64,000 bases of DNA from Ignavibacteriota bacterium. GTDB taxonomy: Bacteria > Bacteroidota > Ignavibacteria > UBA10030. The translations under genes were made by a program, and so were the position numbers. Below, piece by piece: positions 12,567 through 55,164 of this stretch (the stretch's first letter is position 1; each line of letters opens with the position of its first letter). The stretch spans positions 2,784,001 through 2,848,000 of the forward strand of contig OY969585.1 in assembly GCA_963701295.1 (NCBI GenBank), in the 5' to 3' direction. Under the pieces are notes generated by a model. The model had not been told where the DNA came from. It worked only from the letters and a program-made list of their open reading frames with translations, and ran no database searches.

Positions 12567-13661
12567 CTAAAATAGCAAACTCACACCTACAGCTTGTACA
12601 CCGCCAAGGATTCCGATACTTCTATAAGCATATTCCACTTTTATGCTTTGATTGGACATCGTATTCACCTGTAAACCTATTCCGTACGACGCGCCATATT
12701 GCGAGTCTTCCATAAAGAGGGCTTTATACCCTCCGCGCAGAAATATTTTTCCGAAACTCGGAAAGTTCAGCGAGTATTGTGCTCCAACATTGACTGATTC
12801 ACTATTGTTGTTTGGGTGCAACGCATCCACCGAGAGAATGATCTCGTGAACATCGGTCAGAAGAGGTGTTACAGAGACTCCAACTCGGAAAATCAACGGC
12901 AATTCCCACTCTTGTGTCGAAAGTCTTCCGGGTGCACTTTGATAATTTCCAGCAGAATTGGGATCTACATCAATCGGAGTTAAAAGATCGAGGCCATCGT
13001 ATTTGAGTGTCGTACCATAATTGGAAATACTCATACCGATATTGAGTCCGTGTTCGTTTCTGCTTGTGGGAGAGAAGAAATCTGTTTTGATAAGGACACC
13101 TAAATCAAAAGCAAGTGCCGACGCACTTTCGTGCCAAATAGAACTGGTGACAATCTTGCCCGTAGCTCCAACAGAAAACCATTCCGTAAGGTTTCTTGCA
13201 AATGAAAGGCTAAAAGCCATGTCTCTGGCCGTGAACTTTTCTCCTGTGCCTTCCTGCATACTCATTGTTGTTACGTCCATATCCCCATAATCCATCATAA
13301 TAAAGTTTGCACCAATAGTTCCAAAACTCGGTATGATGATGCCGACCCCCCCAAACGTTGTGTTCATCCCTACCAGCCAGGGTTGAGTGACGAACATGAC
13401 TTCACTTCTGCTCATCTGTGCAAGTCCTGCAGGATTCCAATAGCTTGAAGATGCATCATTCGCTAAACTTACATATGCATCACCCAAAGCACTTCCTGCT
13501 GCCCCATAACCTATTTCCAGAAAATTGGCCGATGTCGTGCCAGCTCGCATCGGCTTCTGTGCAAATGAAGAGATCGACATGATCATCATTGCCGCGATGA
13601 GTACGATCGATCTGTTGAATGAATGTTGTCTCATAGGATTCTCTCTCTTTATTTTGCTCAA
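12567..13661 (-). CDS. PorV/PorQ-family outer-membrane beta-barrel
   Basis: GTTSANFLEIGYGAAGSALGDAYVSLANDASSSYWNPAGLA N-terminal signature; C-terminal Phe. Confidence 0.85.
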   Translation of the reverse strand: MSKIKRENPMRQHSFNRSIVLIAAMMIMSISSFAQKPMRAGTTSANFLEIGYGAAGSALGDAYVSLANDASSSYWNPAGLAQMSRSEVMFVTQPWLVGMNTTFGGVGIIIPSFGTIGANFIMMDYGDMDVTTMSMQEGTGEKFTARDMAFSLSFARNLTEWFSVGATGKIVTSSIWHESASALAFDLGVLIKTDFFSPTSRNEHGLNIGMSISNYGTTLKYDGLDLLTPIDVDPNSAGNYQSAPGRLSTQEWELPLIFRVGVSVTPLLTDVHEIILSVDALHPNNNSESVNVGAQYSLNFPSFGKIFLRGGYKALFMEDSQYGASYGIGLQVNTMSNQSIKVEYAYRSIGILGGVQAVGVSLLF

Positions 13662-35650: not shown

Positions 35651-35671
35651 AGCTTGAGCGTCTGGTTATGC
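35651..35671 (-). repeat. Truncated attC (cassette 11)
   Basis: Only R''/L'' (GCATAAC-CAGAC-GCTCAAGC) remain. Confidence 0.75.
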
Positions 35672-35679
35672 CGCTTATT

Positions 35680-36189
35680 TTATTTGTTTACTTGACCAAA
35701 TAATTGAGCTGCGGGACATCCGAGTTCTTGTTGTTTGCAATACTTACAGGAAAAAGAACTGCGAATAAACTCATTCCCTTTAAAGGAAATCAAAACAATA
35801 GCAATTATTGCAGCTAAAATTATCCATTTAAAATTGATCAATAATGTAATTATTCCGCCAATTAAAGGAAGAACTAGTAATAGCAAATCGGGTATCATAT
35901 CCCACCACGTCGATTTTCGTTCATTAAATTTCTTGGGATCACCTTTGGAGAATACCGATGCACAAATTTTCCCTTTCCCAAATCCGCATAATTTTCCGTA
36001 GTAATAGCAATTTACACATCCCTTGCGATATTGATTTATTTCCATAAAAATGAAATACAATAAATAAAATACAGCAAATATAGTTCCCAATTGAGCAAGG
36101 ATGAATAATCCAATAGCATAAATAGATATCGATAATGCATTAGCTATTGCAATCATCCAAAACGGATAGTTCTCATATTTGGATTGCAT
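35680..36189 (-). CDS. Cassette 11: 4-TM membrane protein with Cys clusters
   Basis: Hydrophobic helices; CVNCYYYGKLC and CKYCKQQELGCP. Confidence 0.7.
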   Translation of the reverse strand: MQSKYENYPFWMIAIANALSISIYAIGLFILAQLGTIFAVFYLLYFIFMEINQYRKGCVNCYYYGKLCGFGKGKICASVFSKGDPKKFNERKSTWWDMIPDLLLLVLPLIGGIITLLINFKWIILAAIIAIVLISFKGNEFIRSSFSCKYCKQQELGCPAAQLFGQVNK

Positions 36190-36225
36190 AGTTAATACTC
36201 CTCACAATTGATCTAAGCGTAAGCG

Positions 36226-36381
36226 GCCTAACGGATCAGCGCTAAGCGGCGGCGTTGATAATTTTCAAGTTGCTGGAAACGAAACAAGTTTATGATATCA
36301 ACTTTCAAATAAACACAAAACCTATGCTCGCCATGAATTTTACAGTGAGCTCATTCCGTCAGCTTGAGCGCCTGGTTAGGC
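36226..36381 (-). repeat. attC (156 bp)
   Basis: GCCTAAC...GTTAGGC with conserved L boxes. Confidence 0.92.
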
Positions 36382-36487
36382 GGCAGATGAATTGAAGAGA
36401 TTTATAACTTCAAAAAATACTTATACTAAATAATTCAATAAAAGTTTTACAATATATATTTTCTGTTTCATTGCGATATTTAGAAAA

Positions 36488-37387
36488 TCATTTTGTTAAG
36501 TAACGCACTATAACTACTCCTGAACCTCCGTTACCACCAGGCATACTTACATACGTTCCGGAAACTAGTCCGCCGCCGCCACCACCACCACCTGTATTTG
36601 GTGTGCCATTGCCTGCAATGGAATTAGTATTTGATCCTGCACCTCCGCCTCCAACGCCCCCAGCACCTGGCGTGTCAGTACCATAAACGCCACCACCACC
36701 ACCGCCTCCATAATAGACATTTGAACCTGAAATACTGAAAGCTAACCCCGGTCCACCATTTCCATTTCCACCAGATCCGGTTCCACCACTTCCAACTCCA
36801 CCCGCACCACCGCCGCCTCCTGCAAGATAATTCCAAGCAGTTCCCCCAAGACCACCAGCATATCCTTGACCAGGTATTCCATCACCGTTGCTATTACCTA
36901 GATTTTGTGGACTGCCGCCTCCACCTGAACCCCCACTGTCTGCCATTGAAAACCTGCTTGCCCCACCACCTCCACCGATTGCTACTACTACATCAAATAT
37001 TGAGTTTGACCCATTTAAAGCTGTAATAGTGTTATCAGTAGAACCACTTCCACCTACTCCAACGATAACAGGTATATTTCCACTTACATAATAATATTTT
37101 TTATATACTACTCCGCCACCACCTCCACCACCAGCCGTATGACATCCCCCACCACCACCTCCTCCTACAACAAGTAATTCCACTAGCCCACTGTCAATAC
37201 AAGAAAATGTTCCGCTGCTGGTAAAAGTATGTATTGTGTAACCTCCGGCTTGGGTTATAGTTCCACCTGTAGCCGAGTTTAACATTCCAAGTGTGATATA
37301 AGTTGGAGCGGTTGATTGATCTTTTTGGCAGCTTGCGATAAATAACAAGCATCCAACTATCATTGAAATTAAAAAGTGTTTTGTCAT
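36488..37387 (-). CDS. Cassette 10: glycine-rich lipoprotein
   Basis: Lipobox FIAS-C; YTIHTFTSSGTF...GGGGGGG...GGSGVVIVRY glycine-rich domain. Confidence 0.8.
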   Translation of the reverse strand: MTKHFLISMIVGCLLFIASCQKDQSTAPTYITLGMLNSATGGTITQAGGYTIHTFTSSGTFSCIDSGLVELLVVGGGGGGGCHTAGGGGGGGVVYKKYYYVSGNIPVIVGVGGSGSTDNTITALNGSNSIFDVVVAIGGGGGASRFSMADSGGSGGGGSPQNLGNSNGDGIPGQGYAGGLGGTAWNYLAGGGGGAGGVGSGGTGSGGNGNGGPGLAFSISGSNVYYGGGGGGGVYGTDTPGAGGVGGGGAGSNTNSIAGNGTPNTGGGGGGGGLVSGTYVSMPGGNGGSGVVIVRYLTK

Positions 37388-37429
37388 GGATATTTCTCCT
37401 ATTAGTTATAGAATGCTAATTTTAAGGTT

Positions 37430-37650
37430 GCCTAACGGACCGGCGCTAAGCTGCGGCGTTGATAACTCTCGTAATGCAACCAACGAAACAAGTTCATGCT
37501 GAAAACCAAATTAATAAACACTCAACCAACGAGGTATTGAAAAGTTAATTATAAAAACTTAAACCCACCATTAGCCATGAATTTCGCACCCAGCTCATTC
37601 CGTCAGCTTGCTTGCCCGCCGTCTTGTTGGGCGGGAGCGCCTGGTTAGGT
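37430..37650 (-). repeat. attC (221 bp, long type, 25-bp hairpin insertion)
   Basis: GCCTAAC...GTTAGGT; insertion at 37611-37635. Confidence 0.9.
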
Positions 37651-37660
37651 TGCAATTGTT

Positions 37661-38873
37661 TCATTTGAGCAAAACAAGTTTTTTTATCTCAGTAAATGAG
37701 CCGGCTTGCAATCGATAAAAATAAAATCCACTCGGCATATTTGACGCATTCCATTGCCGTGTGTAGGTGCCAGCAGATAATTCTTCAGAGGTAATGATTG
37801 CTATTTCTCTTCCAAGTAAATCATATATCTTTAGTAACACATATGATTTCGATGGAATAATAAATGAAATAGTCGTAGATGGATTAAAAGGATTGGGATA
37901 ATTCTGACCAAGCCTGAAATTCGTCGGTAAGTCAGTCGAGAGCTTTTCTACTGAGGTTATTTCTGACAACGGTCGTTTCCAGACGCCGATTTCAGTCCCG
38001 GCAAAGAGATTCGTGCCGGAAACGGTAAGAATATATATAACAGTCTTTGCCAAACCAGTGTTGATAGGAGTCCAGCTTGTGCCATTATTGGTCGAAAGAA
38101 AGACGCCACCGTTCAGAGTCCCGGCAAAGAGATTTGTTCCAGAACCAGTAAGAGCAACGACAGGATTAGACATCAATCCGTTACTCATTGCAATCCAATT
38201 TGTACCGTTATTAGTAGATAGAAAGACACCTAAATCAGTTCCAGCATAGAGATTTGTACCAGAGACGGCAAGTGTAGAGACAATAGGAATATTCGACCAC
38301 CTATCTGTTAGGCCTGTATTCACTGCAGTCCAGCTTGTCCCATTGTTGGTCGATAGGAAAACGCCATCTTCAGTCCCTGCAAAGAGATTAGTACCAGAAA
38401 CAATAATATAGGCTAACTTTAATCCAGTACCTCGCTGCAGACCAACTAGTACCGTTATTGGTGGAAAGAAAAACGCCGTTATAAGTCGCGGCAAATAGAT
38501 TCGTACCGGAGACGGCAAAAGAATAGACAAAAGGGGATGTCAAGTTTGAATCGATTGCTTTCCAGCTTGTGCCATTGTTGGTGGATAGAAAGGCGCCACC
38601 ACCCCAAGTCCCGGCAAAAAGATTCGTACCGGAGAATGTAAGAGCATAGACATAAGGATTTGTCAATCCTGAATCGACTGTAATCCAACTTGTGCCGTCG
38701 TTAGTGGAAAGAAAGACACCGCCAGATCCTCCTGCAAAGAGATTCGTACCACTTGCAGTAATACATTGAATAAAACCATTGTTGGATCCTGTCTGTATCC
38801 ATTGAGCCATGGAAGGATTGATGCCGGATATCATAAAAATACTTAACATTAAAGAACGAATAATGTTTTTCAT
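37661..38873 (-). pseudogene. Cassette 9: BNR/beta-propeller repeat protein with T9SS CTD, frameshifted
   Basis: Repeats of SGTNLFAGT..GVFLSTNNGTSW; ORFs 38388..38873 and 37661..38530 join if one base is removed at about 38431. Confidence 0.85.
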
Positions 38874-38913
38874 ATGTCTGTTTTCTTCTGTTTAGTTACT
38901 ACAACGCAATTGC

Positions 38914-39068
38914 ACCTAACTGACTGGCGCTAAGCTGCGGCGTTGATAATTCTCGTAATGCAACCAAAGAAACAAGTTCATGCTGATTCTTTCAAGTTTG
39001 TACTGACCTATACGTGCAATGTAAATTGCACCCAGCTGGCAACCGTCAGCTTGAGCAGTGGGTTAGGA
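38914..39068 (-). repeat. attC (155 bp)
   Basis: ACCTAAC...GTTAGGA. Confidence 0.9.
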
Positions 39069-39080
39069 TGCAATTGCCAT

Positions 39081-40982
39081 TTACTTAAGCAAAATCATTT
39101 TCTTTGTCTTAACGAAACTTCCGGCAGTGAGTCTGTAGATATACACTCCGCTTGACAACCCACCTGCGTTAAAAGACACCGAGTGAGCACCAGCATTCTG
39201 ACGTTCGTTGACCAATGTTCTTATTTCCCTTCCTAACATATCGTAAACCTCTAAATTTATAAAACTGTTTGTCGGCAACTGATAACCGATGACCGTTGTA
39301 GGATTGAAAGGGTTAGGATAATTTTGATTCAGAACAAAAACGAGTGGAACATGCGAGCTTGTTCGCGAGACAACGCTCGTTACTGATGTTATCCAGGTCA
39401 GAGCCGCTTTTGCAACATCATCTTCACCTTTTGCGACACCATCTGGCGTTAACCAAACCTTGTCATCCATTTGAAATTCCACGTGTGTAAGATAATGAGG
39501 AAGACTGTCTTCCAAGACATACCCATTCAACCATGCGTACTGGGCAAAACAAATACTGTCGATACTTGTTATCTGATCGGATGCATATCCTGAAGCAGGA
39601 GGTTCCCCGAAAAACCGTGCCTTGGGGTGATTACGCAATTGTGTCGCTATAAAATCGTTAGCACTCACTGAATTTGGCCCCATTAGAACCGCGATTGGTT
39701 TATCGAAGAATCGCGTTGAATCGACAAACATGGAGAAAGTTGAAAAATACATCATCGAGAAATGATCGAACGGATCGTTGCGGCTCGCCAAATAAATCGG
39801 CGGGGGCGCGACTTTGAATAGAAGCGAAAGCCCTTCATCAGCATTCTCTACGTACCCTCCTTGGTTTGAGCGAATATCGATGACTATACCGTCCACCTTG
39901 TAGATGCGTGTCAGAGAGTCGATTGCATTGAAGAAATGTAAATTTGAATTAAACCAAGTCCACGAATAGACGTATCCGATGTTTGTACCCTGAACAATTC
40001 CCCACCGAACATCCTTAGCAGATGTGATCGAATCAGTCATCGGGACGCCTGCGACAGGTAGTTGTTCCGTACAAAACAAGCTTAAGTCTTTACCAATAAG
40101 AAGACTGGTGGGAAGATGCAGTGTGTCTCTCGTTGAATATTTTATGATGTCGATTGTATCAAAGAGATGCCAGTTTCTCCCAGCAGATTGAAGCCATGAA
40201 TGTGCGAACGCCCCTGCGTTTCCTCCCCAATACGATGTGAACGAAATTGGCAGCTCCATCTTAAGCAATCGAGGATAGAGTTGTTTCCACGGCACACCGT
40301 CATACCCCAGGACAATATCCCCGGGAACTAGCCCCAACGGATGCGATGGAATCGATTTGTAAACCAGAACGGTACTATCCTCAAGAGGAGTGAGTCCTGC
40401 GCCAAAACTATCGTCGTTTCCCCAACCCCCAGCAAATAACATAGGTATTCCTGGTGTGCCTCTTGTGAGATTCGTAATGCCCATATCTCCTATGTGAGTA
40501 TGCGGCTCCATCAATGCAATGGACATCTGACTGAGAATGGCTGCAAATCGGCCACGACTGACCCCTTTTTCGATCTCGGGCCGGTATTTGTTCTTGAGGA
40601 CGTTCCAATCGAAATCAAGATTTTGGAAACAGGCAAACTTCTGGTCGATCATTGTCCATACCGAATCGAAAGCTTGCAATTCTTCCGTTGCTGGAGCAGT
40701 CCCCCAAATACTATTCACTCGATCATGCCAATCAGACTTAAGGATATCGAGGGCTTGTGATTCAAGAATTGTGCTGGCACAAATCACAATGAGACAGCAC
40801 AGTAGAAAATTCTTCCAAATTAAGCGATTCTTGAATCCATCAAGAAATTCTTCCAAACTGATATTATGGGATAAATGATTGATATTTGTCAACTGTAGTA
40901 GAGCGGACGTTTCAGCTGTGCAGTTCTTCCGGACGGATCGTCTAAGTGTTAAATGTCTAGGGCAACAATGCTTAATTACCAA
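39081..40982 (-). CDS. Cassette 8: S41-family peptidase with T9SS CTD (start uncertain)
   Basis: IVIDIRSNQGG, VLMGPNSVSANDF, FFGEP; QNYPNPFNP CTD; signal-like segment at about 40830-40760. Confidence 0.8.
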   Translation of the reverse strand: MVIKHCCPRHLTLRRSVRKNCTAETSALLQLTNINHLSHNISLEEFLDGFKNRLIWKNFLLCCLIVICASTILESQALDILKSDWHDRVNSIWGTAPATEELQAFDSVWTMIDQKFACFQNLDFDWNVLKNKYRPEIEKGVSRGRFAAILSQMSIALMEPHTHIGDMGITNLTRGTPGIPMLFAGGWGNDDSFGAGLTPLEDSTVLVYKSIPSHPLGLVPGDIVLGYDGVPWKQLYPRLLKMELPISFTSYWGGNAGAFAHSWLQSAGRNWHLFDTIDIIKYSTRDTLHLPTSLLIGKDLSLFCTEQLPVAGVPMTDSITSAKDVRWGIVQGTNIGYVYSWTWFNSNLHFFNAIDSLTRIYKVDGIVIDIRSNQGGYVENADEGLSLLFKVAPPPIYLASRNDPFDHFSMMYFSTFSMFVDSTRFFDKPIAVLMGPNSVSANDFIATQLRNHPKARFFGEPPASGYASDQITSIDSICFAQYAWLNGYVLEDSLPHYLTHVEFQMDDKVWLTPDGVAKGEDDVAKAALTWITSVTSVVSRTSSHVPLVFVLNQNYPNPFNPTTVIGYQLPTNSFINLEVYDMLGREIRTLVNERQNAGAHSVSFNAGGLSSGVYIYRLTAGSFVKTKKMILLK

Positions 40983-41075
40983 ATAAACTCCCAGGCGTCA
41001 AAGAAACAAGAATTTCTAGAACCAGAAGAATTGTAGATATATTATTAAGAAACTCATTTTATATATTTTCCTGCT

Positions 41076-41232
41076 GCCTAACCAACGTCGCAGAAGCTAC
41101 CGTACTGATAATTTTCAAAATATTGATAACGAAACAAGTTCATTGTACCTACTTTCAAATTAATATAAAATCTACGCTCGCCGTGAATTTTGCAGTGAGC
41201 TCATTCCGTCAGCTTGGAGCTGCTGGTTATAC
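41076..41232 (-). repeat. attC (157 bp, degenerate)
   Basis: GCCTAAC...GTTATAC; L boxes diverged. Confidence 0.8.
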
Positions 41233-41241
41233 CGCTTGCAT

Positions 41242-42192
41242 TTATTTCTTGTCTTTCAAATATTTGCTATAAAATTCGGCGATCTTATTAAAAAACTCCG
41301 GATAGGTGATGAATTCCGGCCCGTTCATGCCGCCGTGTTCGGCATGAGGCACTATCCATAATTCTTTTTGTCCCTTCAATTCACCCGCTATTTTCTTCGA
41401 CATCCAGACTGGCGTGCGATTATCCTTTTCGCCGACAATTAAGAACACCGGAATCGAAACTTTCTTTGCTGCGTTTACTGGCAACAGTTCAATGGGATAA
41501 TTTTCCGGCGGTAAAAAATTTCTGTCAGGAGAAACTTGTTTCAGTATCGGTAAAAGATCAGCAAATGATGTCAGCAACGCTCGGCCGACATAGGCTGCTA
41601 TGTCGTTCCTCTTTGCGGCGATAGCGAAAGACAAATAAGCACCGGTGGAAAAGCCCATGACACCAATTCGCATTGTATCAACTTCCGGCTGTTGCTTTAA
41701 GAAATCGACAGCCGCATTATAATCGGTAATGAATTCCGCATAGCACAATCTATCCTCTTCAGTTGGCCAATCCGAGCTTTCTCCGAAACCACGCCAATCA
41801 AAGAGCAGAACATTGTAACCCCGCGTAAACAAATGATAACCATAAAAAATTAGCTGCGTCATATTTCCAGCATCACCATCGCAAATAATGATGGTCGGCC
41901 TCCTCGAATCATCCAACGTTGTATATAGCCTCGCTTTGGGTTTGAGTTCTTGAGGTACCGGCACAATCCGTCCGATGATCGAGTTAGCTATACCTGAAGT
42001 ATCCTGTGCCGGGAAAAACCAGCCCTTCAATTTAAGACTGTCGGCAGTTTGAATTACAACTTGTCTGTAAATGATTCCGTAATCTGAAGGGATTGCGCGG
42101 TACTGTCTTTCTGGTTTGAGTGCATACAACAACGAAGAGGTGAGAAGAAGCAAGGAAACCAGCGATAACAGGGAAGTTCTAAACTTAACCAT
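41242..42192 (-). CDS. Cassette 7: exported alpha/beta hydrolase
   Basis: FDWRGFGES, GFSTG nucleophile elbow, GEKD, AEH. Confidence 0.85.
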   Translation of the reverse strand: MVKFRTSLLSLVSLLLLTSSLLYALKPERQYRAIPSDYGIIYRQVVIQTADSLKLKGWFFPAQDTSGIANSIIGRIVPVPQELKPKARLYTTLDDSRRPTIIICDGDAGNMTQLIFYGYHLFTRGYNVLLFDWRGFGESSDWPTEEDRLCYAEFITDYNAAVDFLKQQPEVDTMRIGVMGFSTGAYLSFAIAAKRNDIAAYVGRALLTSFADLLPILKQVSPDRNFLPPENYPIELLPVNAAKKVSIPVFLIVGEKDNRTPVWMSKKIAGELKGQKELWIVPHAEHGGMNGPEFITYPEFFNKIAEFYSKYLKDKK

Positions 42193-42288
42193 TTTGTCAT
42201 CTCCTTTTTAACATGGATTCTCTATCTCAAAATTTTGAATCGAACATACAAACAGTAATGTTATCTAACTTTCATAAAAGTGCAAGAG

Positions 42289-42470
42289 GCATAATGGATC
42301 GGCGCTAAGCTGCAGCGCTGATAACTTTCATAATGTACTAAACGAACCAAGTTCATTCACTTCACTTTCAATTCTGCACTTGACCTCTACGCGCAATGCA
42401 AAATGCACTCGCGCTTTTACCGTCAGCTTGCTTGCCCGCCGTCTTGTTGGGCGGGAGCGCCTGGTTAGGC
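42289..42470 (-). repeat. attC (182 bp; 25-bp insertion; R' core GTT mutated to ATT)
   Basis: Plus strand GCATAAT...GTTAGGC; insertion at 42431-42455. Confidence 0.85.
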
Positions 42471-42477
42471 GGCTTTG

Positions 42478-43152
42478 CTAAAATGATGTCGTATCTTCTT
42501 TAACAGAAATAATTTTCCCGTTTTTATAAGACTTAATAGTCGTGATAGATCGCTTGTTCTCAAAGTCGTTGTAGGTATCTACTTCTCTAAGTAGAATTAA
42601 TTTGCCATTTTTGAAACAATGAGTATAGACAGCACCACCAGTACTCCCTCCTGCATCATAAGATGTAATTGTATGTTTAACAGAATCAGGGTCTGGATCT
42701 CTTAACTCGCTAAAATCATCATTAAATACATACTTGCCTGTTTTTGGATTGTACAGCCAAACATAATTTTGTCCTCCAGCACTTCCGTCGTTATACTCTA
42801 TAAGAATATCATTATAACCATCAAAATTCATGTCCTTTGTCTCAACAGCTCTCGGATTAAAAATAAAATCATCATTTTTAGGCAAATGGAGCCTTTGTAA
42901 TATTTTATTACTGCCTTCTTGTCGCACCTCTATTCGGATTACCTTTGGACCAGGATCAACATTCTGTTCCCAATCACTTACGAATACCGAAAATTTATAT
43001 TGAGGTAATTGCTTCGCCACAGTTATCGTAAAGTCATATTGGTTATCAGAGACCTTAACAAACGGTACTTGCGCAAGATATTGGGCGACTACAATTTCAG
43101 TGAAAGAAAATAGAAACAAATGCAAAGCAACCACTTTATATAATATTTTCAT
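42478..43152 (-). CDS. Cassette 6: exported protein, XAC2610-related
   Basis: Signal peptide from ATG 43152; DMNFDGYND motif and YVWLYNPKTGKY. Confidence 0.65.
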   Translation of the reverse strand: MKILYKVVALHLFLFSFTEIVVAQYLAQVPFVKVSDNQYDFTITVAKQLPQYKFSVFVSDWEQNVDPGPKVIRIEVRQEGSNKILQRLHLPKNDDFIFNPRAVETKDMNFDGYNDILIEYNDGSAGGQNYVWLYNPKTGKYVFNDDFSELRDPDPDSVKHTITSYDAGGSTGGAVYTHCFKNGKLILLREVDTYNDFENKRSITTIKSYKNGKIISVKEDTTSF

Positions 43153-43187
43153 CTCGTCATATCCTTTGATTAGTACTGAGCAATGCC

Positions 43188-43339
43188 AGCTAACGGTCCT
43201 AAGCTGCGGCGTTGAAAAGCTGCAAGATGCACCCAGCAAAATGAGTTCACGCTGATAATTTTTAATTTTGCACCCGACCTCTGCACGCCATGCGTAACGT
43301 ACCCGGCTGGCAACCGTCAGCTTGAGCGCCTGGTTAGGC
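43188..43339 (-). repeat. attC (152 bp)
   Basis: AGCTAAC...GTTAGGC; shortened L'-R' spacer. Confidence 0.88.
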
Positions 43340-43349
43340 AGCGTAAGAT

Positions 43350-43694
43350 TTAACGTAACCAGACAAAGCTACCATTTATCTCTTTAGCAAGTGTAACTGC
43401 GCCGTTGCCATAGTCATGACAAAAAATGTATTGATGAGGTAAGCGCAGTGCGACATCTTTAAATTTATGGTTTTTGTCCATAAGCTCGTCAAGAACTTGT
43501 TTAGAGCGTGATATTTTAGCTTTTGCCATTTCCGGAGTTGTATTCTCAATGTTCCATTCTGAATAACTATAAACGACTAAACAATTATCCTTCTCTTTCG
43601 AGAATACAACGCCATGATAATTAAAGGCATTACCCTCAATAAATTGATCTATGGCAATTTCAATACGCTGTGGCGTTGCGTCGGTAATATCCAT
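43350..43694 (-). CDS. Cassette 5: hypothetical protein
   Basis: 114-aa ORF filling the space between two attC sites; RBS AAGGAAG. Confidence 0.75.
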   Translation of the reverse strand: MDITDATPQRIEIAIDQFIEGNAFNYHGVVFSKEKDNCLVVYSYSEWNIENTTPEMAKAKISRSKQVLDELMDKNHKFKDVALRLPHQYIFCHDYGNGAVTLAKEINGSFVWLR

Positions 43695-43982
43695 TATTCT
43701 TCCTTACGCTGCCTAACGGATTGCGGCTAAGCTGCCGCATGACCAACTTTAATTAACCACAAAACGAAACGAGTTCATGCTGATAACAAAATTAACATGT
43801 ACTCAACCAATGAAGTACTGAAAAGTTAATAATAAAAACGTCAAACCACCATCAGCCATGTAAATTGCTCCAACGCTCATCCGGTCAGCTTGAGCCGCTG
43901 GATATTACCAAAAAGGAATCTCCCGATTATGTACATTGATAATTCTCTAGGTCACCAACATCCACAATCTAAGGAGATTCCC

Positions 43983-44984
43983 ATGTATTACTCAGGTATC
44001 GATTTGCATTCTGATAATTGTTTTATCACCACTGTTGATGACACTGGTGCTGTCATCAAGCGACAACGTGTCGAGAATAACAATGAACGTGTTCTTGATT
44101 ACTTCCACTCTCTGCCCGGTCCTCATCACGCAGTCGTTGAGTCTACCACAGGATGGTACTGGCTCAACGATCTTCTCAGCGATCACGGCATCGAGCTTGT
44201 CCTTGCTCACGCCAAATATCTCAAAGCCATCAGTTATGCTAAAGTTAAAACAGATAAAGTCGATTCGCAAACTCTTGCTCTTCTCTTACGACAGGGACTC
44301 ATTCCACGGGCTCACAAAATCAGCCGAGAACTACGCGGCCTGCGCGATACCATGCGTATTCGTCTACGGCTCGTTCAGCAACGAACTGCCAGTCTTCTGC
44401 GTCTCTACAGTATTCAGACCAAATTTAACGGCTCTGTTCCGGATCCGTATCGTTTTCAACTTGCTGTCTTGCAACATACCAGAGACACTTTTACTGCTCA
44501 GATCCTCTCGCTGGAAAAATCTCTCCATCCTGTGCTGATTCCCAACGACGATATTCAACGGCTCTTGCACATTCCAGGTATCGGCAAGCTCACCGCATTC
44601 ACGGTGTATCTTGAAATCGACGGCATTGAACGATTCGACTCCGATAAAAAGTTTGTCTCTTACTGCCGACTCGTCCCTGCTGCCGATAACTCCAATCGCT
44701 CTGTGCACCATCGCTCCAGCAAAGACGGCAATAAGTATCTCAAAATCGCCTTCTCCGATGCCGCTGTTCATGCTATTCAGTACTATCCGGAATACAAACG
44801 CTTATTCCAGAAATTAGCTCGTCGCTCCAATGAGGCGACTGCGCGAACCGTCGTTGCCAAAGAACTTGCGAAGATTGTTTACTATGTCTTAAAAAACAAA
44901 ACAATATATAAAGGTCTCAAAGGTCAGCCGATCAGCCGGCATAAATCTCAGCAGTGGCCGCGCCTCTCAAGCCCGCTTTCCTAA
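43983..44984 (+). CDS. IS110-family DEDD recombinase/transposase
   Basis: GIDLH, VEST, KTDKVDS (DEDD), IPGIG, DNS serine loop, GNKYLK; ATG 43983 with AAGGAG RBS. Confidence 0.95.
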   Translation: MYYSGIDLHSDNCFITTVDDTGAVIKRQRVENNNERVLDYFHSLPGPHHAVVESTTGWYWLNDLLSDHGIELVLAHAKYLKAISYAKVKTDKVDSQTLALLLRQGLIPRAHKISRELRGLRDTMRIRLRLVQQRTASLLRLYSIQTKFNGSVPDPYRFQLAVLQHTRDTFTAQILSLEKSLHPVLIPNDDIQRLLHIPGIGKLTAFTVYLEIDGIERFDSDKKFVSYCRLVPAADNSNRSVHHRSSKDGNKYLKIAFSDAAVHAIQYYPEYKRLFQKLARRSNEATARTVVAKELAKIVYYVLKNKTIYKGLKGQPISRHKSQQWPRLSSPLS

Positions 44985-45240
44985 CTGATCCCGACTGCGT
45001 CGGGATCGTTCGCTGGATTGGGAAGAGAGTGCGCTGTGCCGTGGTAATATCTGGAACATCTCGCTCGACGAGATACGCTTTCACCATCGTTTCTTCAATG
45101 AGTGAATGTAAATCCGTAAACTGGTTTGGACGGCATTGCTCTGGTAATCGCCTGTCTATTCGATAGAGAACGCGGCATCGGCACGGATTCGGTCGTCCTT
45201 AATGTTAAAGAACTCTGCATTCCGATTGCGCGGAACGCAT
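44961..45240 (+). ncRNA. Predicted bridge RNA / seekRNA
   Basis: Guides CCTAAC (44980-85) and CGCTGG (45011-16) match the target; TGGTAATATC (45042-51) and TAAACTGG (45117-24) match the donor junction; each pair lies in a stem-closed loop. RNA ends approximate. Confidence 0.85.
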
Positions 45241-45294
45241 CGGGAGTATATTATTTACTTGACTCTTTCCTTTTTAAACTGGTTAGGCAGCGCT

Positions 45295-45699
45295 TTATTT
45301 CTTATCGTTCTTTGAATCTAATTTTTTCATCTCGAAACCTCTAACGATGACATACGCAATGAGAGCAACCAGAAAAAATATAAGGAGCATCCACGCAATA
45401 CTCTGCAATGAATCGATAATAGATTTGTACACCTCTATAATCCATCGGTCAGAAGTAAGCTGAAGAATTCTGCCTTCTTTGTCCGATGTAATGTACTTTT
45501 CGAGATCCCATAATCTCACTCCGCCGGAAATGCCAACAACAAATATTGCAAAGAGGATGTACCGTCGCCAAGTGGGAGCCAGATCCTCGCTGACAAGTCG
45601 GCTAAGAATTTTTGTAATGGGTCGTGCGAAGAGGAATGCAACCAAAGTTGACATCGCCAATGCAATAACGAAGGTTACAATTAACAATGTGACAAACAT
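45295..45699 (-). CDS. Cassette 4: 3-TM membrane protein
   Basis: Hydrophobic ORF with GGAGG RBS between attC sites. Confidence 0.8.
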   Translation of the reverse strand: MFVTLLIVTFVIALAMSTLVAFLFARPITKILSRLVSEDLAPTWRRYILFAIFVVGISGGVRLWDLEKYITSDKEGRILQLTSDRWIIEVYKSIIDSLQSIAWMLLIFFLVALIAYVIVRGFEMKKLDSKNDKK

Positions 45700-45734
45700 G
45701 TGATACCTCCTTTTGACAAATAACTTAAAGCGCT

Positions 45735-45889
45735 GCCTAACGGACGCGGCTAAGCTGCGACGACGAAAACTATCAATCTTGTACCCAACGAAACGAGTTC
45801 AAGCAGGATCTTTCCAATTCCACAAGAACACTATTTGCCATGTTTAATGTACCGTCGCGCAATTCGTCAGCTTGAGCCGCTGGTTGCGC
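45735..45889 (-). repeat. attC (155 bp)
   Basis: GCCTAAC...GTTGCGC (R'' appears to have lost one base). Confidence 0.88.
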
Positions 45890-45895
45890 GCAAAG

Positions 45896-46375
45896 TTACC
45901 CGCATCCACAGCCACCCTGTGCTTTAACCATTTCGGTTCGAGTTTCGTTCTTAATAGTTATGATACTCTCCATCCACTCGAATTCACAATTATCGTTTGT
46001 TGGAGAACATACAGTGAGAAATATAAGCTTTACCTTGACGAAATATTTCCCGTATGAGTATAGCTTAATAATAGAATCGCCGACCTGTAATAATTTCTTT
46101 TGCGGCCGTACTTCTTCAATCAACTTGAGACTAATGTCATGACCATCGAGGTTCATCCAACCGATGGTGTCCTTAGCCGATCCGTCGCTGTGAAAAATGT
46201 CGCCAGACTTATGCGTGGCATCTAGATAGAAATTGCAGCCGCATTCGTCTCTATGCTCAGGAATAGATATGGGTGCAACAATGGATTTTTCCTGCGACAA
46301 TGAAAATTGGCTAGATATAGTGCATGCTAAACAGCATACGAATAAAAAGCAGAACCTATTTAGAATTATAATCAT
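45896..46375 (-). CDS. Cassette 3: exported hypothetical protein (CGC motifs at both ends)
   Basis: Signal-like N-terminus; ECGCNF and GGCGCG. Confidence 0.7.
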   Translation of the reverse strand: MIIILNRFCFLFVCCLACTISSQFSLSQEKSIVAPISIPEHRDECGCNFYLDATHKSGDIFHSDGSAKDTIGWMNLDGHDISLKLIEEVRPQKKLLQVGDSIIKLYSYGKYFVKVKLIFLTVCSPTNDNCEFEWMESIITIKNETRTEMVKAQGGCGCG

Positions 46376-46390
46376 TGATTTTACTTTGCG

Positions 46391-46578
46391 CGCTAACGGA
46401 CCGCAACTAAGCTGCGGCGCTGATAATTTTCAATATACACAAAACGAAGTGAGTTCATGCTAAAAGTTTATTATTAAACATCTAAACCTCTACGCGCCAT
46501 GCTTAACGTACCCATTTACCCGCCATGCTTTATCTTTGGGCGAGCGCTCATTCCGTCAGCTTGAGCGCCTGGTTAGGT
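46391..46578 (-). repeat. attC (188 bp, about 30-bp hairpin insertion)
   Basis: CGCTAAC...GTTAGGT; insertion at about 46515-46545. Confidence 0.9.
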
Positions 46579-46591
46579 GAACTTGCAACTA

Positions 46592-48796
46592 CTATTTGAT
46601 TAACAACATTTTCTTTACCACAAAAAAACCTCCAGCTTCGATGCGATAGAAATATACTCCGGAGGCAGAGGAAGATCCATTCCACTCTCTTGAATATGAT
46701 CCTGAATCTAAATCTCTATCGACAAGAGTTGCTATCTGATTGCCTAACAAATCAAAGATCCTGACGTGAACTTTACATCGAAAAGGAATAGAGAAATTGA
46801 TTCTTGTCAACGGATTAAAAGGGTTTGGGTAGTTCTGCTCCAGATGGAATCCATTAATCTTATTATTACTAGATTGTTGTACGTTCGTTGTCGAATGAAT
46901 GCTTCTAAATACGCCCTGCCTATAAGTGCCTGCAAATAGAAGTCCTGAATGATCTGGGGCCAAGGCAAAAACAGAAGTACTCGTCAAACCGTTGTTCAGA
47001 AGATTCCATGTTACACCAGCATCTGTTGACTGGAAAACTCCATCGCCAGAGTTACTATAGCTACCAACATAAATGTTCGATCTGGAGTTTAATGCGATAC
47101 AATTAATTGAAACATTTGGAAGACCAATATTTTCCCATGACAGACCATTGTTGTTAGAACGAAATAATCCATTGTCATAAGTCCCTGCATAAAGGTTTCC
47201 CACTGAATCAACTGCAAGACTGTAAATGTACGTATCTGGAATTCCTATACTAGTTGACGTCCAATTGTTGCCATTGTCAGTAGTGCGAAAAACATGTCCA
47301 CTTGGGAGTCCATTTACATTGCCAGTTCCAGCATAAATGAAGCCACTATTCGGCACTGCAATCATGCAGTTTACACTCCAATCTTCGAGACCAACATTTG
47401 CTTGTGCCCAAGTATCTCCACGGTCTGTGGATCGATAGACACCGAGATATGATCCAGCGAAGATACTTTGGTTCGGTGCTATTGCAAGAGCATTGAGTCT
47501 GATGGAATCCAAAGGCGTTTGCATCCAAGTAGCGCCAAGGTTCGTGCTTCGATATACACCATTGCTAGTACCAGTATAGACCCAATTACTCGAATCGATT
47601 GAGATCGATTGAATCCATGAACTTTTCAGACCCTCGTTAGATTCTTGCCAACTCGTGCCCCCATCGGTAGAACGGAATAGTCCATTGCCAATGTATGGCC
47701 CCGAATAGCCATAACCAGTTCCAGCAAAGATATATCCATTCCGACTAACACAGATCGAATGAATCCATGTATTGAGTAATCCGAGATTTCCTTCCGACCA
47801 GTGAGCACCAAAGTCTGTGGAAAAGCAAATGCCGCCACCTCCGGTACCTGTAAACAAACGGCCAGAGTGATCCGAATAAATCGAGTTTATGTACATGCTT
47901 GATAATCCATTGCTGGAACCCAGCCAACTGATGCCATGATTGGTCGAGCAAAAGACTCCATGACCTAAAGAGGCTGAGACCTGACCGGTGCCAGCATACA
48001 GGCGATTGGCATTGTCAGCCACTAGAGAGTGAATGTACTCGGCGGGTAAGCCAGAGTCAGCTGTGAACCAGTCATCTCCAGAATTTGTGGAGCGATACAC
48101 CTGACCAGCATATGTCCCAGCGTATACATCATTGTTTAAATCGACAGTGATGGCAGAAATCCATTCTGGTTGTTTAACGACAACCCAGGAATTACCACCA
48201 TCAGTTGACCGATGTAATCCACCAGTTCCTCCACCAGTCATACCGTGATACTCTTCCTCGGTTCCTGCGAAAATGAAGCCCTGTTGATTCTCCGCAAAAG
48301 CCCGAATGGAAAAGTTTGTCAATCCAATATTCAATTGATACCACGAACTACCCTCATTTGTTGATCGATAGATACCACCGCCAGATGTCCCAACAAAAAC
48401 AGCTCCGTTTCGAGTGATAAGAAGAACATTGGTGTATGTTGAAGTCATCCAGTTATCGATACGTTCCCAGCTTTGTGCATGATTTGTCGACTTGAAAACA
48501 CCCTCTACAGTTCCAACAAAAAGAACGGTATCAGATCCTACAGCAATAGTTGTAATTGATAATGAAGTCAATCCAGCATTTGAAGAAGACCAACTTTTTC
48601 CTTCATCGGTTGATTTGAAGATGCCACTTCCATCAGTGCCAGCGTAGAGTGTGCCATTAGAATCGGACACAATCGATGACACGTACGCCCCAAAAGGTCC
48701 ATTTGATTGCTGCCAGAAGTTTGCCTGAGCAATAGCAAATGTTGGAATAAGAAACAAAAAGCAAATGATTAAATACTTCATATGATACTTCCACAT
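46592..48796 (-). CDS. Cassette 2: large BNR/beta-propeller repeat protein with T9SS CTD
   Basis: About 14 AGT..G(V/L)(F/Y)RSTDxGxSW repeats; QNYPNPFNP CTD. Confidence 0.88.
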   Translation of the reverse strand: MWKYHMKYLIICFLFLIPTFAIAQANFWQQSNGPFGAYVSSIVSDSNGTLYAGTDGSGIFKSTDEGKSWSSSNAGLTSLSITTIAVGSDTVLFVGTVEGVFKSTNHAQSWERIDNWMTSTYTNVLLITRNGAVFVGTSGGGIYRSTNEGSSWYQLNIGLTNFSIRAFAENQQGFIFAGTEEEYHGMTGGGTGGLHRSTDGGNSWVVVKQPEWISAITVDLNNDVYAGTYAGQVYRSTNSGDDWFTADSGLPAEYIHSLVADNANRLYAGTGQVSASLGHGVFCSTNHGISWLGSSNGLSSMYINSIYSDHSGRLFTGTGGGGICFSTDFGAHWSEGNLGLLNTWIHSICVSRNGYIFAGTGYGYSGPYIGNGLFRSTDGGTSWQESNEGLKSSWIQSISIDSSNWVYTGTSNGVYRSTNLGATWMQTPLDSIRLNALAIAPNQSIFAGSYLGVYRSTDRGDTWAQANVGLEDWSVNCMIAVPNSGFIYAGTGNVNGLPSGHVFRTTDNGNNWTSTSIGIPDTYIYSLAVDSVGNLYAGTYDNGLFRSNNNGLSWENIGLPNVSINCIALNSRSNIYVGSYSNSGDGVFQSTDAGVTWNLLNNGLTSTSVFALAPDHSGLLFAGTYRQGVFRSIHSTTNVQQSSNNKINGFHLEQNYPNPFNPLTRINFSIPFRCKVHVRIFDLLGNQIATLVDRDLDSGSYSREWNGSSSASGVYFYRIEAGGFFVVKKMLLIK

Positions 48797-48811
48797 TATT
48801 TATGCAAGTTC

Positions 48812-49008
48812 ACCTAACGGACCGGCGCTAAGCTGCGGCAATGATAACCCGCAAGCTGCTGAAAACGAACTAAGTTCATTCTGAAAACCAAATTAAATAT
48901 TCCTCAACCAATGAGGTACTGAAAAGTTAATTATAAAAACCTAAACCCACCACAAGCAATGCTTAACGTACCCCAGCTCATTCCGTCAGCTTGAGCGCCT
49001 GGTTAGAA
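48812..49008 (-). repeat. attC (197 bp, long type)
   Basis: ACCTAAC...GTTAGAA. Confidence 0.92.
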
Positions 49009-49063
49009 CGCACGCGGCACAATTTATAAATGATGAACAAAATGGATATTGTTTAATTGTAAG

Positions 49064-49660
49064 TCACATTTCTTTCGTAACGTTATCAACCCATGTCGCA
49101 AAATTCTCATATCCGTCATCTGCTACCCAATCATAAACGGAATACCACTTTTTTAATTGATAAGTTTGGCTCCACTCCTCACGTGGGAGTTGATTTTCCA
49201 GCGTGTATCCGTTTTTATCCACGCTGGTTTGCCAAGCCGTGTTATTCCATTCGAGAAATTCCAGACTTGTTCCATTGCCATTATAACGGATTGCTAAATA
49301 ATCGAATGGATTCGGGCCAAGTGCTTTGATCGTTTGGCTTTTATCTTTAATACTATTTATATGAACTCCGAACATACCGTTTCCTTTCGATATGCTCTTG
49401 AATATTTCATATCGAACCCAGCGACGGGCATATGTATCACTTCCAATTAGTACAACTGTAGCGGATGTGTTCACGAGCGCATCATCAATAAGGCGTTTGA
49501 TTGCTTCAGGGCCGGTTTTTCGTGCTTTTTCCCAAATTGAAGCGTCAAAAAATCCCGCATCATCTCTGGTCTCTTTAGTCAGGTCATGTTTTCGAACAAC
49601 GTTCGCGCGAAACGTTTCAACATCCTCATAGTCAAAGCTGAAAAATACTCTTTTTGCCAT
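49064..49660 (-). CDS. Cassette 1b: TIR-domain protein (ThsB/DUF1863-like)
   Basis: KRVFFSFDYED...TSATVVLIGSDTYARRWVRYEI with the catalytic-type Glu. Confidence 0.88.
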   Translation of the reverse strand: MAKRVFFSFDYEDVETFRANVVRKHDLTKETRDDAGFFDASIWEKARKTGPEAIKRLIDDALVNTSATVVLIGSDTYARRWVRYEIFKSISKGNGMFGVHINSIKDKSQTIKALGPNPFDYLAIRYNGNGTSLEFLEWNNTAWQTSVDKNGYTLENQLPREEWSQTYQLKKWYSVYDWVADDGYENFATWVDNVTKEM

Positions 49661-49662
49661 AT

Positions 49663-50058
49663 TTAAAGTGTCCACATGATTAAGATGATTGTCCCAATCA
49701 ACACTGCATAAAAAGGGAGAATCGTTTTTGAAAATACTGTCTTGAGATATGTATGTTTATCCATGGCATTTTGGGAAAACTTCATGGAAAAATCTATACT
49801 TGATTCCTCCTTTATCCTTACTTCATCATACAACTCTCTAAACAACCTTTCCTGCCATAAGTAATAAGAATCAAGAAGCCAAAAGATGAAGATCGGAATA
49901 TATGCGATGAGGATGTACTGGTTCTTAGTTCCAGAAGAAAGCGCTGTTAGAGCCGCAACAATTGTGATACACCATCCTTTAGCAAAAAATGAATTGTTTC
50001 CAAGTCTGTTAATAACGCCCTGGATAAATTCTAAATGTTTGAGTTTCTTTTCGTTCAT
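49663..50058 (-). CDS. Cassette 1a: small transmembrane protein coupled to the TIR gene
   Basis: KHLEFIQGVINRLGNNSFFAKGW...FWLLDSYYLWQERLFRELYD; three hydrophobic segments; 2 bp from the TIR start. Confidence 0.75.
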   Translation of the reverse strand: MNEKKLKHLEFIQGVINRLGNNSFFAKGWCITIVAALTALSSGTKNQYILIAYIPIFIFWLLDSYYLWQERLFRELYDEVRIKEESSIDFSMKFSQNAMDKHTYLKTVFSKTILPFYAVLIGTIILIMWTL

Positions 50059-50097
50059 GGAATCACCATAGTCTAAAGATCAAAGAATTTTCGTGCG

Positions 50098-50171
50098 TTC
50101 TAACAATGATTAGACTGCATACCACAGCCTAATACGCTTTTTTGTGTGTTAGACTACATATTGCGGCCTAA
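50098..50171 (-). other. attI-like site
   Basis: G/TTAGAA core at 50104 is not preceded by an attC; two 23-bp direct repeats (50110-32, 50149-71; 18/23 identical). Confidence 0.75.
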
Positions 50172-50254
50172 CATGATGAACTTGGTAACTATGAAACGGA
50201 TTCTGGCAGCTCCCAACAATTCCCCACTTTCTTCGGATACTTATCCGCGCAGGT

Positions 50255-54108: not shown

Positions 54109-55164
54109 TCAGCATACGCTCCGATGATAATAATCTAAATTTAATTCCAGATTTATTTTATTCACTTCATTGTACAGTTGCTCGGGTTGTAAATGAGCAT
54201 AGAGCTCAGTCGTTTGCGCCGATGAGGCATGGCCTAATAATTTAGAAACTGAGTATAAAGGAACAGCAGCCTTTACAAGAGCCGTCGCAAATGAATGGCG
54301 GAGGCTATGAAGGTGAAGATTATCGTTAAGCCCGGCACGTCTGACATATCTCTTAAATTTCTGTGATACTGTTCCTTCTTTTAATTTACTCCCTTTTTGA
54401 TCATAGAAAACAGTTTCACATTCAAATCTTACAATTTGTTTTCTTTCTTTTAGCAATCTCCACAATTCCTCATTTATGGGGACGACACGGTTTCTTCTCG
54501 TTTTTGTAGTGAAAGAATCTGTATTTCTTACGAGGATCACTTTGGCATTAAAATCTACGTCACTCCACTGTAATGAAAGAAGCTCCCCCAATCTGAGGCC
54601 AGATAATATAGCCGTAAGGACTAAATCACGGAAATCAGTATCCCTGACTGCAAAAAGGAATGTTCTAAATTCACTTTCAGTGAAGTATGCAGGCACAATC
54701 TCACTTACTTTCGGTTTGGTGACTTTTCTAAAAGGATTATGTTCAAGAAAAGACCACTGCACAGCTTTCTCAAAGGCTGATGCAAGGGATATATAGTATT
54801 TCCTCGTGCTCCATTCTGAGGCTTCCACTTTTTTCACACTCAGGAAGTGTTCAATCTCCCGAATACCGATTGATTGCAGTGGTTTATCTCCCTCCACACG
54901 AATCAACTCCCTAAATGCAGTCTGATATGTGGTGTATGTTTTCTTTGTCAAAACACCTGATGCATATTCGAAGTATTGCTTTACAAAATCCGAAAGAATA
55001 ATTCTTTTAAGGTTTTGTTTCTTCTGGTGTTCTTCAACTTGGAATTGCAAAAGAAAAGCGAACGCTTTAGATTTCTTCTTGCACTTTGTCGAAACCTTAT
55101 TTCTCTTTCCGGTTTCATCATGAGAGAAGACATAATACACGCCACCAATTTTTGACAGGAACAT
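54109..55164 (-). CDS. Phage-type tyrosine integrase (not IntI)
   Basis: SGLRLGEL, K, HSLRHSFAT, LLGH, Y catalytic set; N-terminal arm-binding-like region; no IntI-specific insertion. Confidence 0.92.
   Translation of the reverse strand: MFLSKIGGVYYVFSHDETGKRNKVSTKCKKKSKAFAFLLQFQVEEHQKKQNLKRIILSDFVKQYFEYASGVLTKKTYTTYQTAFRELIRVEGDKPLQSIGIREIEHFLSVKKVEASEWSTRKYYISLASAFEKAVQWSFLEHNPFRKVTKPKVSEIVPAYFTESEFRTFLFAVRDTDFRDLVLTAILSGLRLGELLSLQWSDVDFNAKVILVRNTDSFTTKTRRNRVVPINEELWRLLKERKQIVRFECETVFYDQKGSKLKEGTVSQKFKRYVRRAGLNDNLHLHSLRHSFATALVKAAVPLYSVSKLLGHASSAQTTELYAHLQPEQLYNEVNKINLELNLDYYHRSVC

Follow-up and report, generated by a model that had tools for sequence, protein, structure and literature searches.

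The window analyzed here, meaning the whole 64,000-nucleotide stretch at positions 2784001-2848000 of a closed 3.64-Mb Ignavibacteriota genome (42% GC), carries an array of integron cassettes on its minus strand. The array is headed by its own attI site and has no integrase gene beside it. We think it likely that this array is served in trans by the single integron integrase (IntI) of the genome, that three of its cassettes carry type IX secretion system (T9SS) cargo, and that a tail shared among such cassettes is re-used to build new ones. The array contains 11 cassette units running from 50103 to 35665. A preliminary description of this DNA had placed the cassettes at 37661-48796. Its three cargo open reading frames (ORFs) are indeed found there on the minus strand, but the true array is wider and extends over approximately 35660-50175.

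The repeats that separate the genes read as attC sites. They carry R'' (YAAC), L'' (CTCAAGCTG), L' (CAGCTTAG) and R' (GTTRRRY) boxes, a base that is extra-helical, and arms that pair. From one site to the next there are one or two ORFs on the same strand, and the ends are complementary when a unit is circularized, which is the arrangement of an integron array. Among 83 strict sites genome-wide, the spacers (the bases beside the L boxes) covary, with 3.23 of 4 positions paired versus 2.36 +/- 0.11 after shuffling. Folding of whole sites is weak evidence alone, since the z-scores of four sites are -2.9, -1.9, -1.7 and +0.5, one being non-significant and two marginal. The arms are paired in three of these four sites and unpaired in one.

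Complementarity of the cassette ends continues beyond the core. Runs of at least 10 nucleotides occur in 59 of 143 units genome-wide (delimited automatically, some of them wrongly), compared with 3.65 units on average, and never more than 11, in 1000 shuffles. Seven of the 11 window units match at 12 or more of 16 ungapped end positions, and two more, including the unit with the BNR-repeat gene, match except for a one-base shift. The cassette carrying the 734-aa gene (46572-48817) has ends complementary over 15 nucleotides. The S41 and 299-aa units have ends without a match (8 of 16 positions for the S41 unit). The genome holds approximately 143 attC right arms, mostly within nine array spans that were delimited by hand. 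Gene-less cassette families of 352, 436 and 460 nucleotides recur across these arrays, some at 100% identity (genome positions 230358-232392, 2478234-2486395 and 3166195-3167438), and at 3450230-3453676 one attC and its cassette are inverted inside a minus-strand array.

Three window cassettes encode proteins with a T9SS type A C-terminal domain (CTD), as had been proposed from the sequence. Their C-termini exceed the cut-offs of both PF18962 (45.8, 38.5 and 32.4 bits; cut-off 27) and TIGR04183 (44.7, 49.8 and 32.5 bits; cut-off 23). An attC R'' box begins no more than about 15 nucleotides after every stop codon, and an attC right arm lies ahead of every gene, so these genes are integron cassettes. 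They occupy positions 2, 8 and 9 from attI. The frameshifted BNR gene belongs to a shared-tail family described below, the S41 cassette has only the linker of that family, and the 734-aa gene has neither and is an independent cassette. The 633-aa S41 ORF probably starts about 55 codons downstream of the called start, because its closest homologues are 562-584 aa long. The frameshift of the BNR gene near 38430 may be an assembly indel, given that sprA and one of 17 other long orthologues tested are also frame-broken. A TTGACA-N18-CATAAT promoter-like site was seen by eye at 40863-40892 in the leader of the S41 cassette, which may be expressed independently of attI.

No close homologues with genomic context came to light for these proteins. 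The S41 leader has no match elsewhere, close S41 homologues amount to one other match in 400 genomes of the class, and the 734-aa protein has no close homologue in the same number of genomes, with three candidates scored per genome. Among distant S41 homologues (39-53% identity), an ad hoc test of unmeasured sensitivity found no attC-like site in 70 of the 79 loci with the stop codon in view.

The attI site at the head of the array is recognized by its homology to the region adjacent to intI and by the cassette-type 5' ends directly after it. Its pattern matches seven times in the source genome, comprising the intI-linked site and six further intact copies, and four times in the congener G009. 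It occurs in six of 86 genomes of the family, all of the same genus. The only intI gene lies at genome positions 3566706-3567662, 730 kb from the window array, and encodes an uninterrupted protein of 319 aa. Among 21 TIGR02249 matches it alone (453 bits at 3566721) exceeds the cut-off. A tyrosine recombinase encoded at 54109-55164 of the window was considered as a candidate IntI and rejected, as it scores 86.8 bits against a cut-off of 265. With at least two attC sites, no intI being nearby, the window array is an attC cluster without an integron integrase (CALIN) and not a complete integron. In the stretches fetched from G009, intI stands beside one of the four attI sites, and IntI is present in 20 of 41 genomes in a sample of relatives. 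In two satellites the opening bases of an intI-like start survive, consistent with duplication of the integron and later loss of intI. Judged from these sequence comparisons, the satellite attI sites are well supported. Two other segments of the genome (581744-581878 and 1210255-1210437) hold a 45-aa C-terminal fragment of intI with 98% identity to the full gene, and an isolated copy of the region upstream of attI that lacks the attI core.

In the arrangement we favor, IntI would act in trans to excise cassettes and re-insert them at satellite attI sites, and cassettes close to attI would be expressed from the retained promoter region. A promoter scan upstream of attI revealed no site on the array strand. 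Different arrays hold identical cassettes. A 1769-nucleotide unit, 1333 nucleotides of which are an insertion sequence (IS), stands in the arrays at 234 kb and 2474 kb in copies that are 100% identical, and units of 436 and 460 nucleotides are 100% identical across arrays over their attC-trimmed parts. At the orthologous attI of G009, which lies beside the same hydrolase-sigma-antisigma genes, the array holds three CTD cassettes, one of them in first position, and has no cassette in common with the window. The array turns over between species. The cell likely swaps secreted proteins through its cassettes.

These observations also bear on whether the array is a decaying CALIN, with real cassettes that are mostly immobile and silent and with little active shuffling of the secretome. 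There are signs of wear in the window: one attC is split by an IS110 element, two others have degenerated, a frameshift interrupts one CTD gene, the start of the S41 gene seems damaged, and the three CTD cassettes stand at positions 2, 8 and 9. The broken sprA gene in this assembly would also fit. We nevertheless regard this explanation as quite unlikely, because the attI site is undamaged and similar in sequence to the one beside intI, identical cassettes occur in distant arrays, turnover at the orthologous attI is complete, and IntI is uninterrupted. By cumulative GC skew (minimum near 1.0 Mb, maximum near 2.7 Mb), eight of the nine array spans are co-oriented with the leading strand, and the array at 224-262 kb is opposite. 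Leading-strand co-orientation lowers excision. A scan for DnaA motifs, made to locate the origin, was negative.

Genome-wide, roughly one in four CTD genes is a cassette gene. A CTD model built from the source genome matches 107 ORFs, 97 of them at 60 bits or more, and TIGR04183 gives 106 matches. Twenty-five of the 97 genes are attC-bound, with an R'' box just after the stop codon in 21 and a crossover site within 130 nucleotides upstream in 15. Array spans make up 7.2% of the genome and contain 27 of the 97 CTD genes (p = 6.5e-10). CTD cassette genes are unusually long for cassettes, as their median is 633 aa and that of the remaining cassette ORFs is 199 aa. Both the existence of the cassettes and their scale are secure. 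Pfam matches in 22 of the 25 genes identify the passengers as BNR/Vps10 propellers, GLUG, FG-GAP, GH5, GH16, GH116, glucoamylase-like, SGL, esterase-CBM and DUF362 proteins, and two neighbors in array spans encode GH31 and S8 proteins. The passengers also include S41. The glucoamylase-like passenger has no close homologue in 85 genomes. A 638-aa CTD gene is present twice in opposite orientation with an identical CTD (2286214-2288130 and 2495656-2497572), one copy being at an array end.

Most other cassette genes were also said to encode exported or membrane proteins, and a crude hydrophobicity rule agrees (genome-wide it is positive for 99 of 145 cassette ORFs without a CTD and for 1226 of 2571 background genes). 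A heuristic of this kind suggests a signal peptide in 21 of the 25 cassette CTD ORFs. The S41 and frameshifted ORFs are negative as called, the 5' ORF of the BNR gene is positive, and S41 homologues begin at a signal-like stretch. Cassettes of this content could vary the cell surface.

The association extends to other genomes. A search of genomes in GTDB for KKxxxxK-stop followed by this attC family recovered 43 loci in which CTD genes adjoin attC, 13 of them with attC on both sides, and 44 of the 45 matches are CTD genes. Record titles name 18 genomes, one of which is the single non-CTD match, and place the CTD-attC junctions in Ignavibacteriae, Ignavibacteriota and Bacteroidota. Short contigs binned as Chitinophagaceae may be misbinned. 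The suggestion that these cassettes were made within this lineage is borne out in part, since the attC family is present in 15 of 15 congeners, the junctions fall in Ignavibacteriae and Bacteroidota records, and one cassette gene is 97% identical to a chromosomal gene of a congener. However, the passenger families have homologues in genomes named from KSB1, Calditrichota and Acidobacteriota, so the cassette genes themselves are not private to the lineage. A contig titled Nanoarchaeota carries a left arm of the attC family after a non-CTD gene, which reflects either misbinning or cross-domain spread.

Unrelated passengers share a common tail consisting of a CTD, a linker and attC. Cassette CTDs have a mean nucleotide identity of 63%, compared with a maximum of 57% in 1000 permutations. 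When scored by leaving one out, a single subtype, called cassette-type here, holds 17 of the 25 cassette CTDs and six of 72 others. Of those six, two are accompanied by attC relics and another is located within an array span. Outside arrays, relics of attC adjoin cassette-type CTD genes at 28.6 kb, 2883 kb and 3337 kb of the genome; the gene at 28.6 kb is a pseudogene that combines the subtype with the linker and a degenerate arm of attC. The 16 core members, a post hoc selection, represent 10 passenger groups that are not homologous to one another, and their identity is 0.64-0.82 inside the CTD and approximately 0.28 upstream. Unrelated passengers use the same codon in this region at a frequency of 0.533, versus 0.446 +/- 0.006 after codon shuffling. 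The corresponding values for chromosomal pairs are 0.399 and 0.378.

A linker of the AATT type, in most cases CAATT, stands directly ahead of R'' in 17 of 20 CTD cassettes versus seven of 122 other cassettes in the source genome, and in 28 of 44 versus four of 137 in relatives. A matching CAATTG is often present at cassette 5' ends across unrelated passengers. Across the order, 83 of 151 genomes have the subtype when the threshold is set so that borderline CTDs pass as well. The shared tail on unrelated protein bodies may show one way in which new cassettes are made. Crossovers in the conserved CTD, for example in the NYPNPFNP codons, would attach cargo genes, whether chromosomal or incoming, to the tail of a resident cassette, and we lean slightly toward this mechanism.

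The best candidate for such a capture is a DUF362 cassette. Genome positions 2388022-2390385 are 97% identical over 2369 nucleotides to a stretch in the congener G011 that includes the 3' end of an intact gene, which we take to encode malic enzyme, an intergenic region and a DUF362 CTD gene, with no attC arm within 20 kb. The source genome has its own copy of the upstream gene, which is 80% identical to the fragment. Identity between the two genomes stops just after the NYPNPFNP codons. Past this breakpoint, the source genome has a cassette-type CTD, linker and attC, and G011 has an ordinary CTD. At its left junction the unit abuts a degenerate attI. Only this copy, one of 28 parsed DUF362 homologues from 30 loci, has a cassette-type CTD with an attC arm. 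This near-identical chromosome/cassette pair marks a breakpoint and suggests that recombination in the CTD could load genes into cassettes.

Similar tails could also result from homogenization, in which CTD cassettes arose by the usual route and gene conversion between neighboring CTD-attC ends later made the tails alike. Repeated CTD-attC ends are plentiful in the arrays. Eight of the 25 cassette CTDs are of the ordinary type, including that of the 734-aa gene with its own perfect ends, and two mosaic CTDs (at 3157497 and 3543623) turn cassette-type only in their last 20 codons. We consider it an unlikely explanation overall, because it fails to account for the DUF362 unit, which carries chromosomal upstream DNA including the presumed malic-enzyme fragment that is 97% identical to the intact gene of the congener. 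In addition, CAATTG at the 5' ends is common to unrelated passengers.

Several results weigh against re-use of a shared tail by crossover in the CTD. The subtype is not a significant predictor of intact attC in relatives (p = 0.23, comparing CTDs at 140 bits or more with those below 125), and attC was called for 11 of 73 CTDs at 125 bits or more versus three of 44 below. In the strict version of this test, the controls come from two relatives only (G002 and G006) and the high-scoring set consists of the best matches of several genomes. The only significant test in relatives is one of the linker that was picked after seeing the data (19 of 60 versus 6 of 44, p = 0.04, with unmatched controls). 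The equally post hoc combination of linker and AAC gives 16 of 60 versus 2 of 44 (p = 0.003), with a background of 2-5 in 117. The subtype classifier shows no difference on loci selected by their junction (p = 0.80, five controls only), and 16 of 40 attC-tailed CTDs of relatives are of the ordinary type. A CTD tree is poorly resolved (four of 92 branches starred, 14 label changes), and this quick, unfinished run cannot show one origin. GH16 homologues gave no clean case of movement from chromosome to cassette and looked like old cassette relics rather than donors. CTD swapping also occurs in S41 orthologues whose context is not known; where passenger identity is 66-81%, their CTDs are just 34-78% identical, and CTD exchange looks frequent in general. 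Even for DUF362, CAATTG also follows the stop codon of the G011 chromosomal gene, which makes the direction of the swap uncertain. Moreover, the unit in the source genome lacks a normal cassette 5' end and so may be a dead end. We regard cassette genesis through the CTD as a genuine but unproven lead.

The state of the host secretion system belongs with these counterpoints. The genome encodes SprA, PorU (959 bits) and 14 PorV-family proteins, but the sprA gene is split near 3471650, with a frame break near residue 2035. The gene is intact in five of five relatives, so the break could be either an assembly error or a real lesion. GldM was not found in this genome or in 13 others of its class, although it exceeded the cut-off in 14 other genomes of a 61-genome sample of the phylum. 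GldN was not found in the source genome, in a search in which no positive control responded. A canonical GldLM motor and GldKN ring is not recognizable here from searches that covered GldM and GldN. Melioribacter and Ignavibacterium are likewise reported to have only PorV, SprA and Plug (PMC11705866).

A lineage without the GldKLMN motor might not use the CTD as a working T9SS signal at all, and the proteins would then be periplasmic or exported otherwise. The absence of GldM from all 14 genomes of the class that were searched and the short component list for Melioribacter and Ignavibacterium are in keeping with this idea, but the retention of approximately 100 CTD genes, a high-scoring PorU and 14 PorV-family genes, along with intact SprA in the relatives, makes it very unlikely in our view. 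Export of the CTD cassette proteins is predicted. The cargo would pass through SprA in a reduced T9SS and then be attached to the surface or released. How such a system works without a recognizable GldLM motor is a question that this cargo raises. The 14 PorV-family loci, many of them near CTD gene clusters, include one at genome position 2796576 (window 12576-13538), and a pair at 2283814 and 2871040 has equal scores. It is possible that multiple PorV-family proteins serve as cargo-specific shuttles.

A bolder proposal can be built on these findings, one that we hold only tentatively. A chassis composed of a CAATTG 5' end, a cassette-type CTD, a CAATTG linker and attC would convert chromosomal cargo genes into cassettes through recombination within the CTD, one integrase would shuffle these among seven attI sites, and decayed cassettes would re-seed the chromosome. 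If true, the chassis would be a concrete, sequence-visible route of cassette genesis and a main engine of secretome evolution in Ignavibacteria-like bacteria.

Table. Features of the cassette array, in window coordinates.
Feature	Position	Strand	Remarks
attI of the satellite array	50097-50175	-	crossover between G and TT at 50104/50103; two direct repeats
Flank of attI, homologous to the attI/promoter region beside intI	extends to ~50290	-	
Cassette 1 gene A, 131-aa membrane protein	49663-50058	-	PADLOC PDC-M50A
Cassette 1 gene B, TIR protein, ThsB-like	49064-49675	-	PDC-M50B; candidate anti-phage pair with gene A
attC	48812-49008	-	
734-aa BNR/Vps10-like propeller protein	46592-48796	-	T9SS type A CTD, ordinary type
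attC	46391-46578	-	
159-aa protein	45896-46375	-	signal-peptide-like N-terminus; no family match
attC	45735-45889	-	
134-aa three-helix membrane protein	45295-45699	-	
attC split by IS110 element	45282-45288; 43711-43900	-	R'' box; remainder
IS110-family transposase	43890-44984	+	element ~43900-45280
114-aa protein	43350-43694	-	no family match
attC	43188-43339	-	degenerate right arm
XAC2610-related protein	42478-43239	-	
attC	42289-42470	-	small hairpin insertion in left arm
Alpha/beta hydrolase	41242-42192	-	signal-peptide-like N-terminus
attC	41076-41232	-	degenerate
S41 peptidase (Tricorn C1 + S41)	39081-40982	-	T9SS type A CTD with ordinary body; cassette-family CAATTG linker; 5' end mismatched to own 3' end; ~270-nt leader
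attC	38914-39068	-	
BNR-repeat protein, frameshifted near 38430	37661-38873	-	cassette-type CTD; ORFs 38388-38873 and 37661-38530; CAATTG at both cassette ends
attC	37430-37650	-	
299-aa glycine-rich protein	36488-37387	-	lipoprotein-like N-terminus
attC	36226-36381	-	
169-aa membrane protein, last cassette	35680-36189	-	
Lone attC left arm	35656-35671	-	after the last cassette

The first cassette behind attI is the two-gene unit at 49064-50058, which encodes a TIR protein and a membrane protein. It would hold the best-expressed position of the array and is a candidate anti-phage system. The IS110-family element has nine near-identical and two diverged copies in the genome, sitting inside attC sites and oriented opposite to the cassettes. 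Elements of the IS1111 type are known to target attC sites. Several attC sites, such as those at 37430-37650 and 42289-42470, contain a GC-rich hairpin of about 25 nucleotides between R'' and L'', which is perhaps a miniature mobile element. Five chromosomal CTD genes are located elsewhere in the window. An Rfam search of the window gave no match, and no tRNA was found in it.

Parts of this system are already known, including integrons in Ignavibacteriae, CALINs and cassettes rich in signal peptides. Complete integrons have been reported in Ignavibacteriae and Chlorobi, CALINs can arise by loss of intI or by rearrangement, and half of them share a replicon with an IntI gene (Cury et al. 2016, PMC4889954; Neron et al. 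2022, 10.1101/2022.02.28.482270). The arrays described here resemble sedentary chromosomal integrons and CALINs in having IntI, attI and attC arrays. Unlike known CALINs, six integrase-less arrays keep an intact attI and the window array turns over between species, which bears on whether CALINs remain active. The cassettes also differ from those of known CALINs and sedentary integrons by including T9SS cargo genes of 1.3-3.4 kb.

Exported products are not new among cassettes, as signal peptides occur in 10-30% of the proteins that cassettes encode (Ghaly et al. 2021, PMC8618304) and cassette deletion alters surface properties in Vibrio (Rapa et al. 2013, PMC3590141). A dedicated outer-membrane secretion signal is not met in the portions of those two papers available to us, whereas a quarter of the CTD repertoire is attC-bound here. 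We found no description of T9SS cargo as integron cassettes in a literature search that covered subscription journals thinly, and cassette tables in survey supplements could list such genes. The finding links two systems that have been studied separately, in that roughly one quarter of the predicted T9SS cargo, with glycoside hydrolases, peptidases and propeller proteins among it, comes from the integron. Type A cargo of the T9SS has an N-terminal signal peptide and a C-terminal CTD (Lasica et al. 2017, PMC5445135), and the present system shares the CTD, SprA, PorV and PorU with its known counterparts. It differs from them in having no recognizable GldM or GldN, 14 PorV-family genes, and cargo genes in the form of mobile cassettes.

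The mechanism that creates new cassettes has been stated to be unknown (PMC4889954). A CTD beside attC as a crossover point offers a route that can be tested, if only for a single class of genes. Recombination shuffles the domains of T9SS-exported surface proteins in Porphyromonas gingivalis as well (Dashper et al. 2017, PMC5266723), where no integron is involved. Here, the exchanged module carries attC, so a swap of the CTD also changes the mobility of the gene. Cassettes are also described as moving into chromosomes by attG insertion, giving rise to single attC sites lacking integron-integrases (SALINs; 10.1101/2022.09.11.507474). The solitary cassettes and relics outside arrays (at 28.6, 2883 and 3337 kb) resemble SALINs, but the DUF362 case suggests that genes flow in the reverse direction as well.

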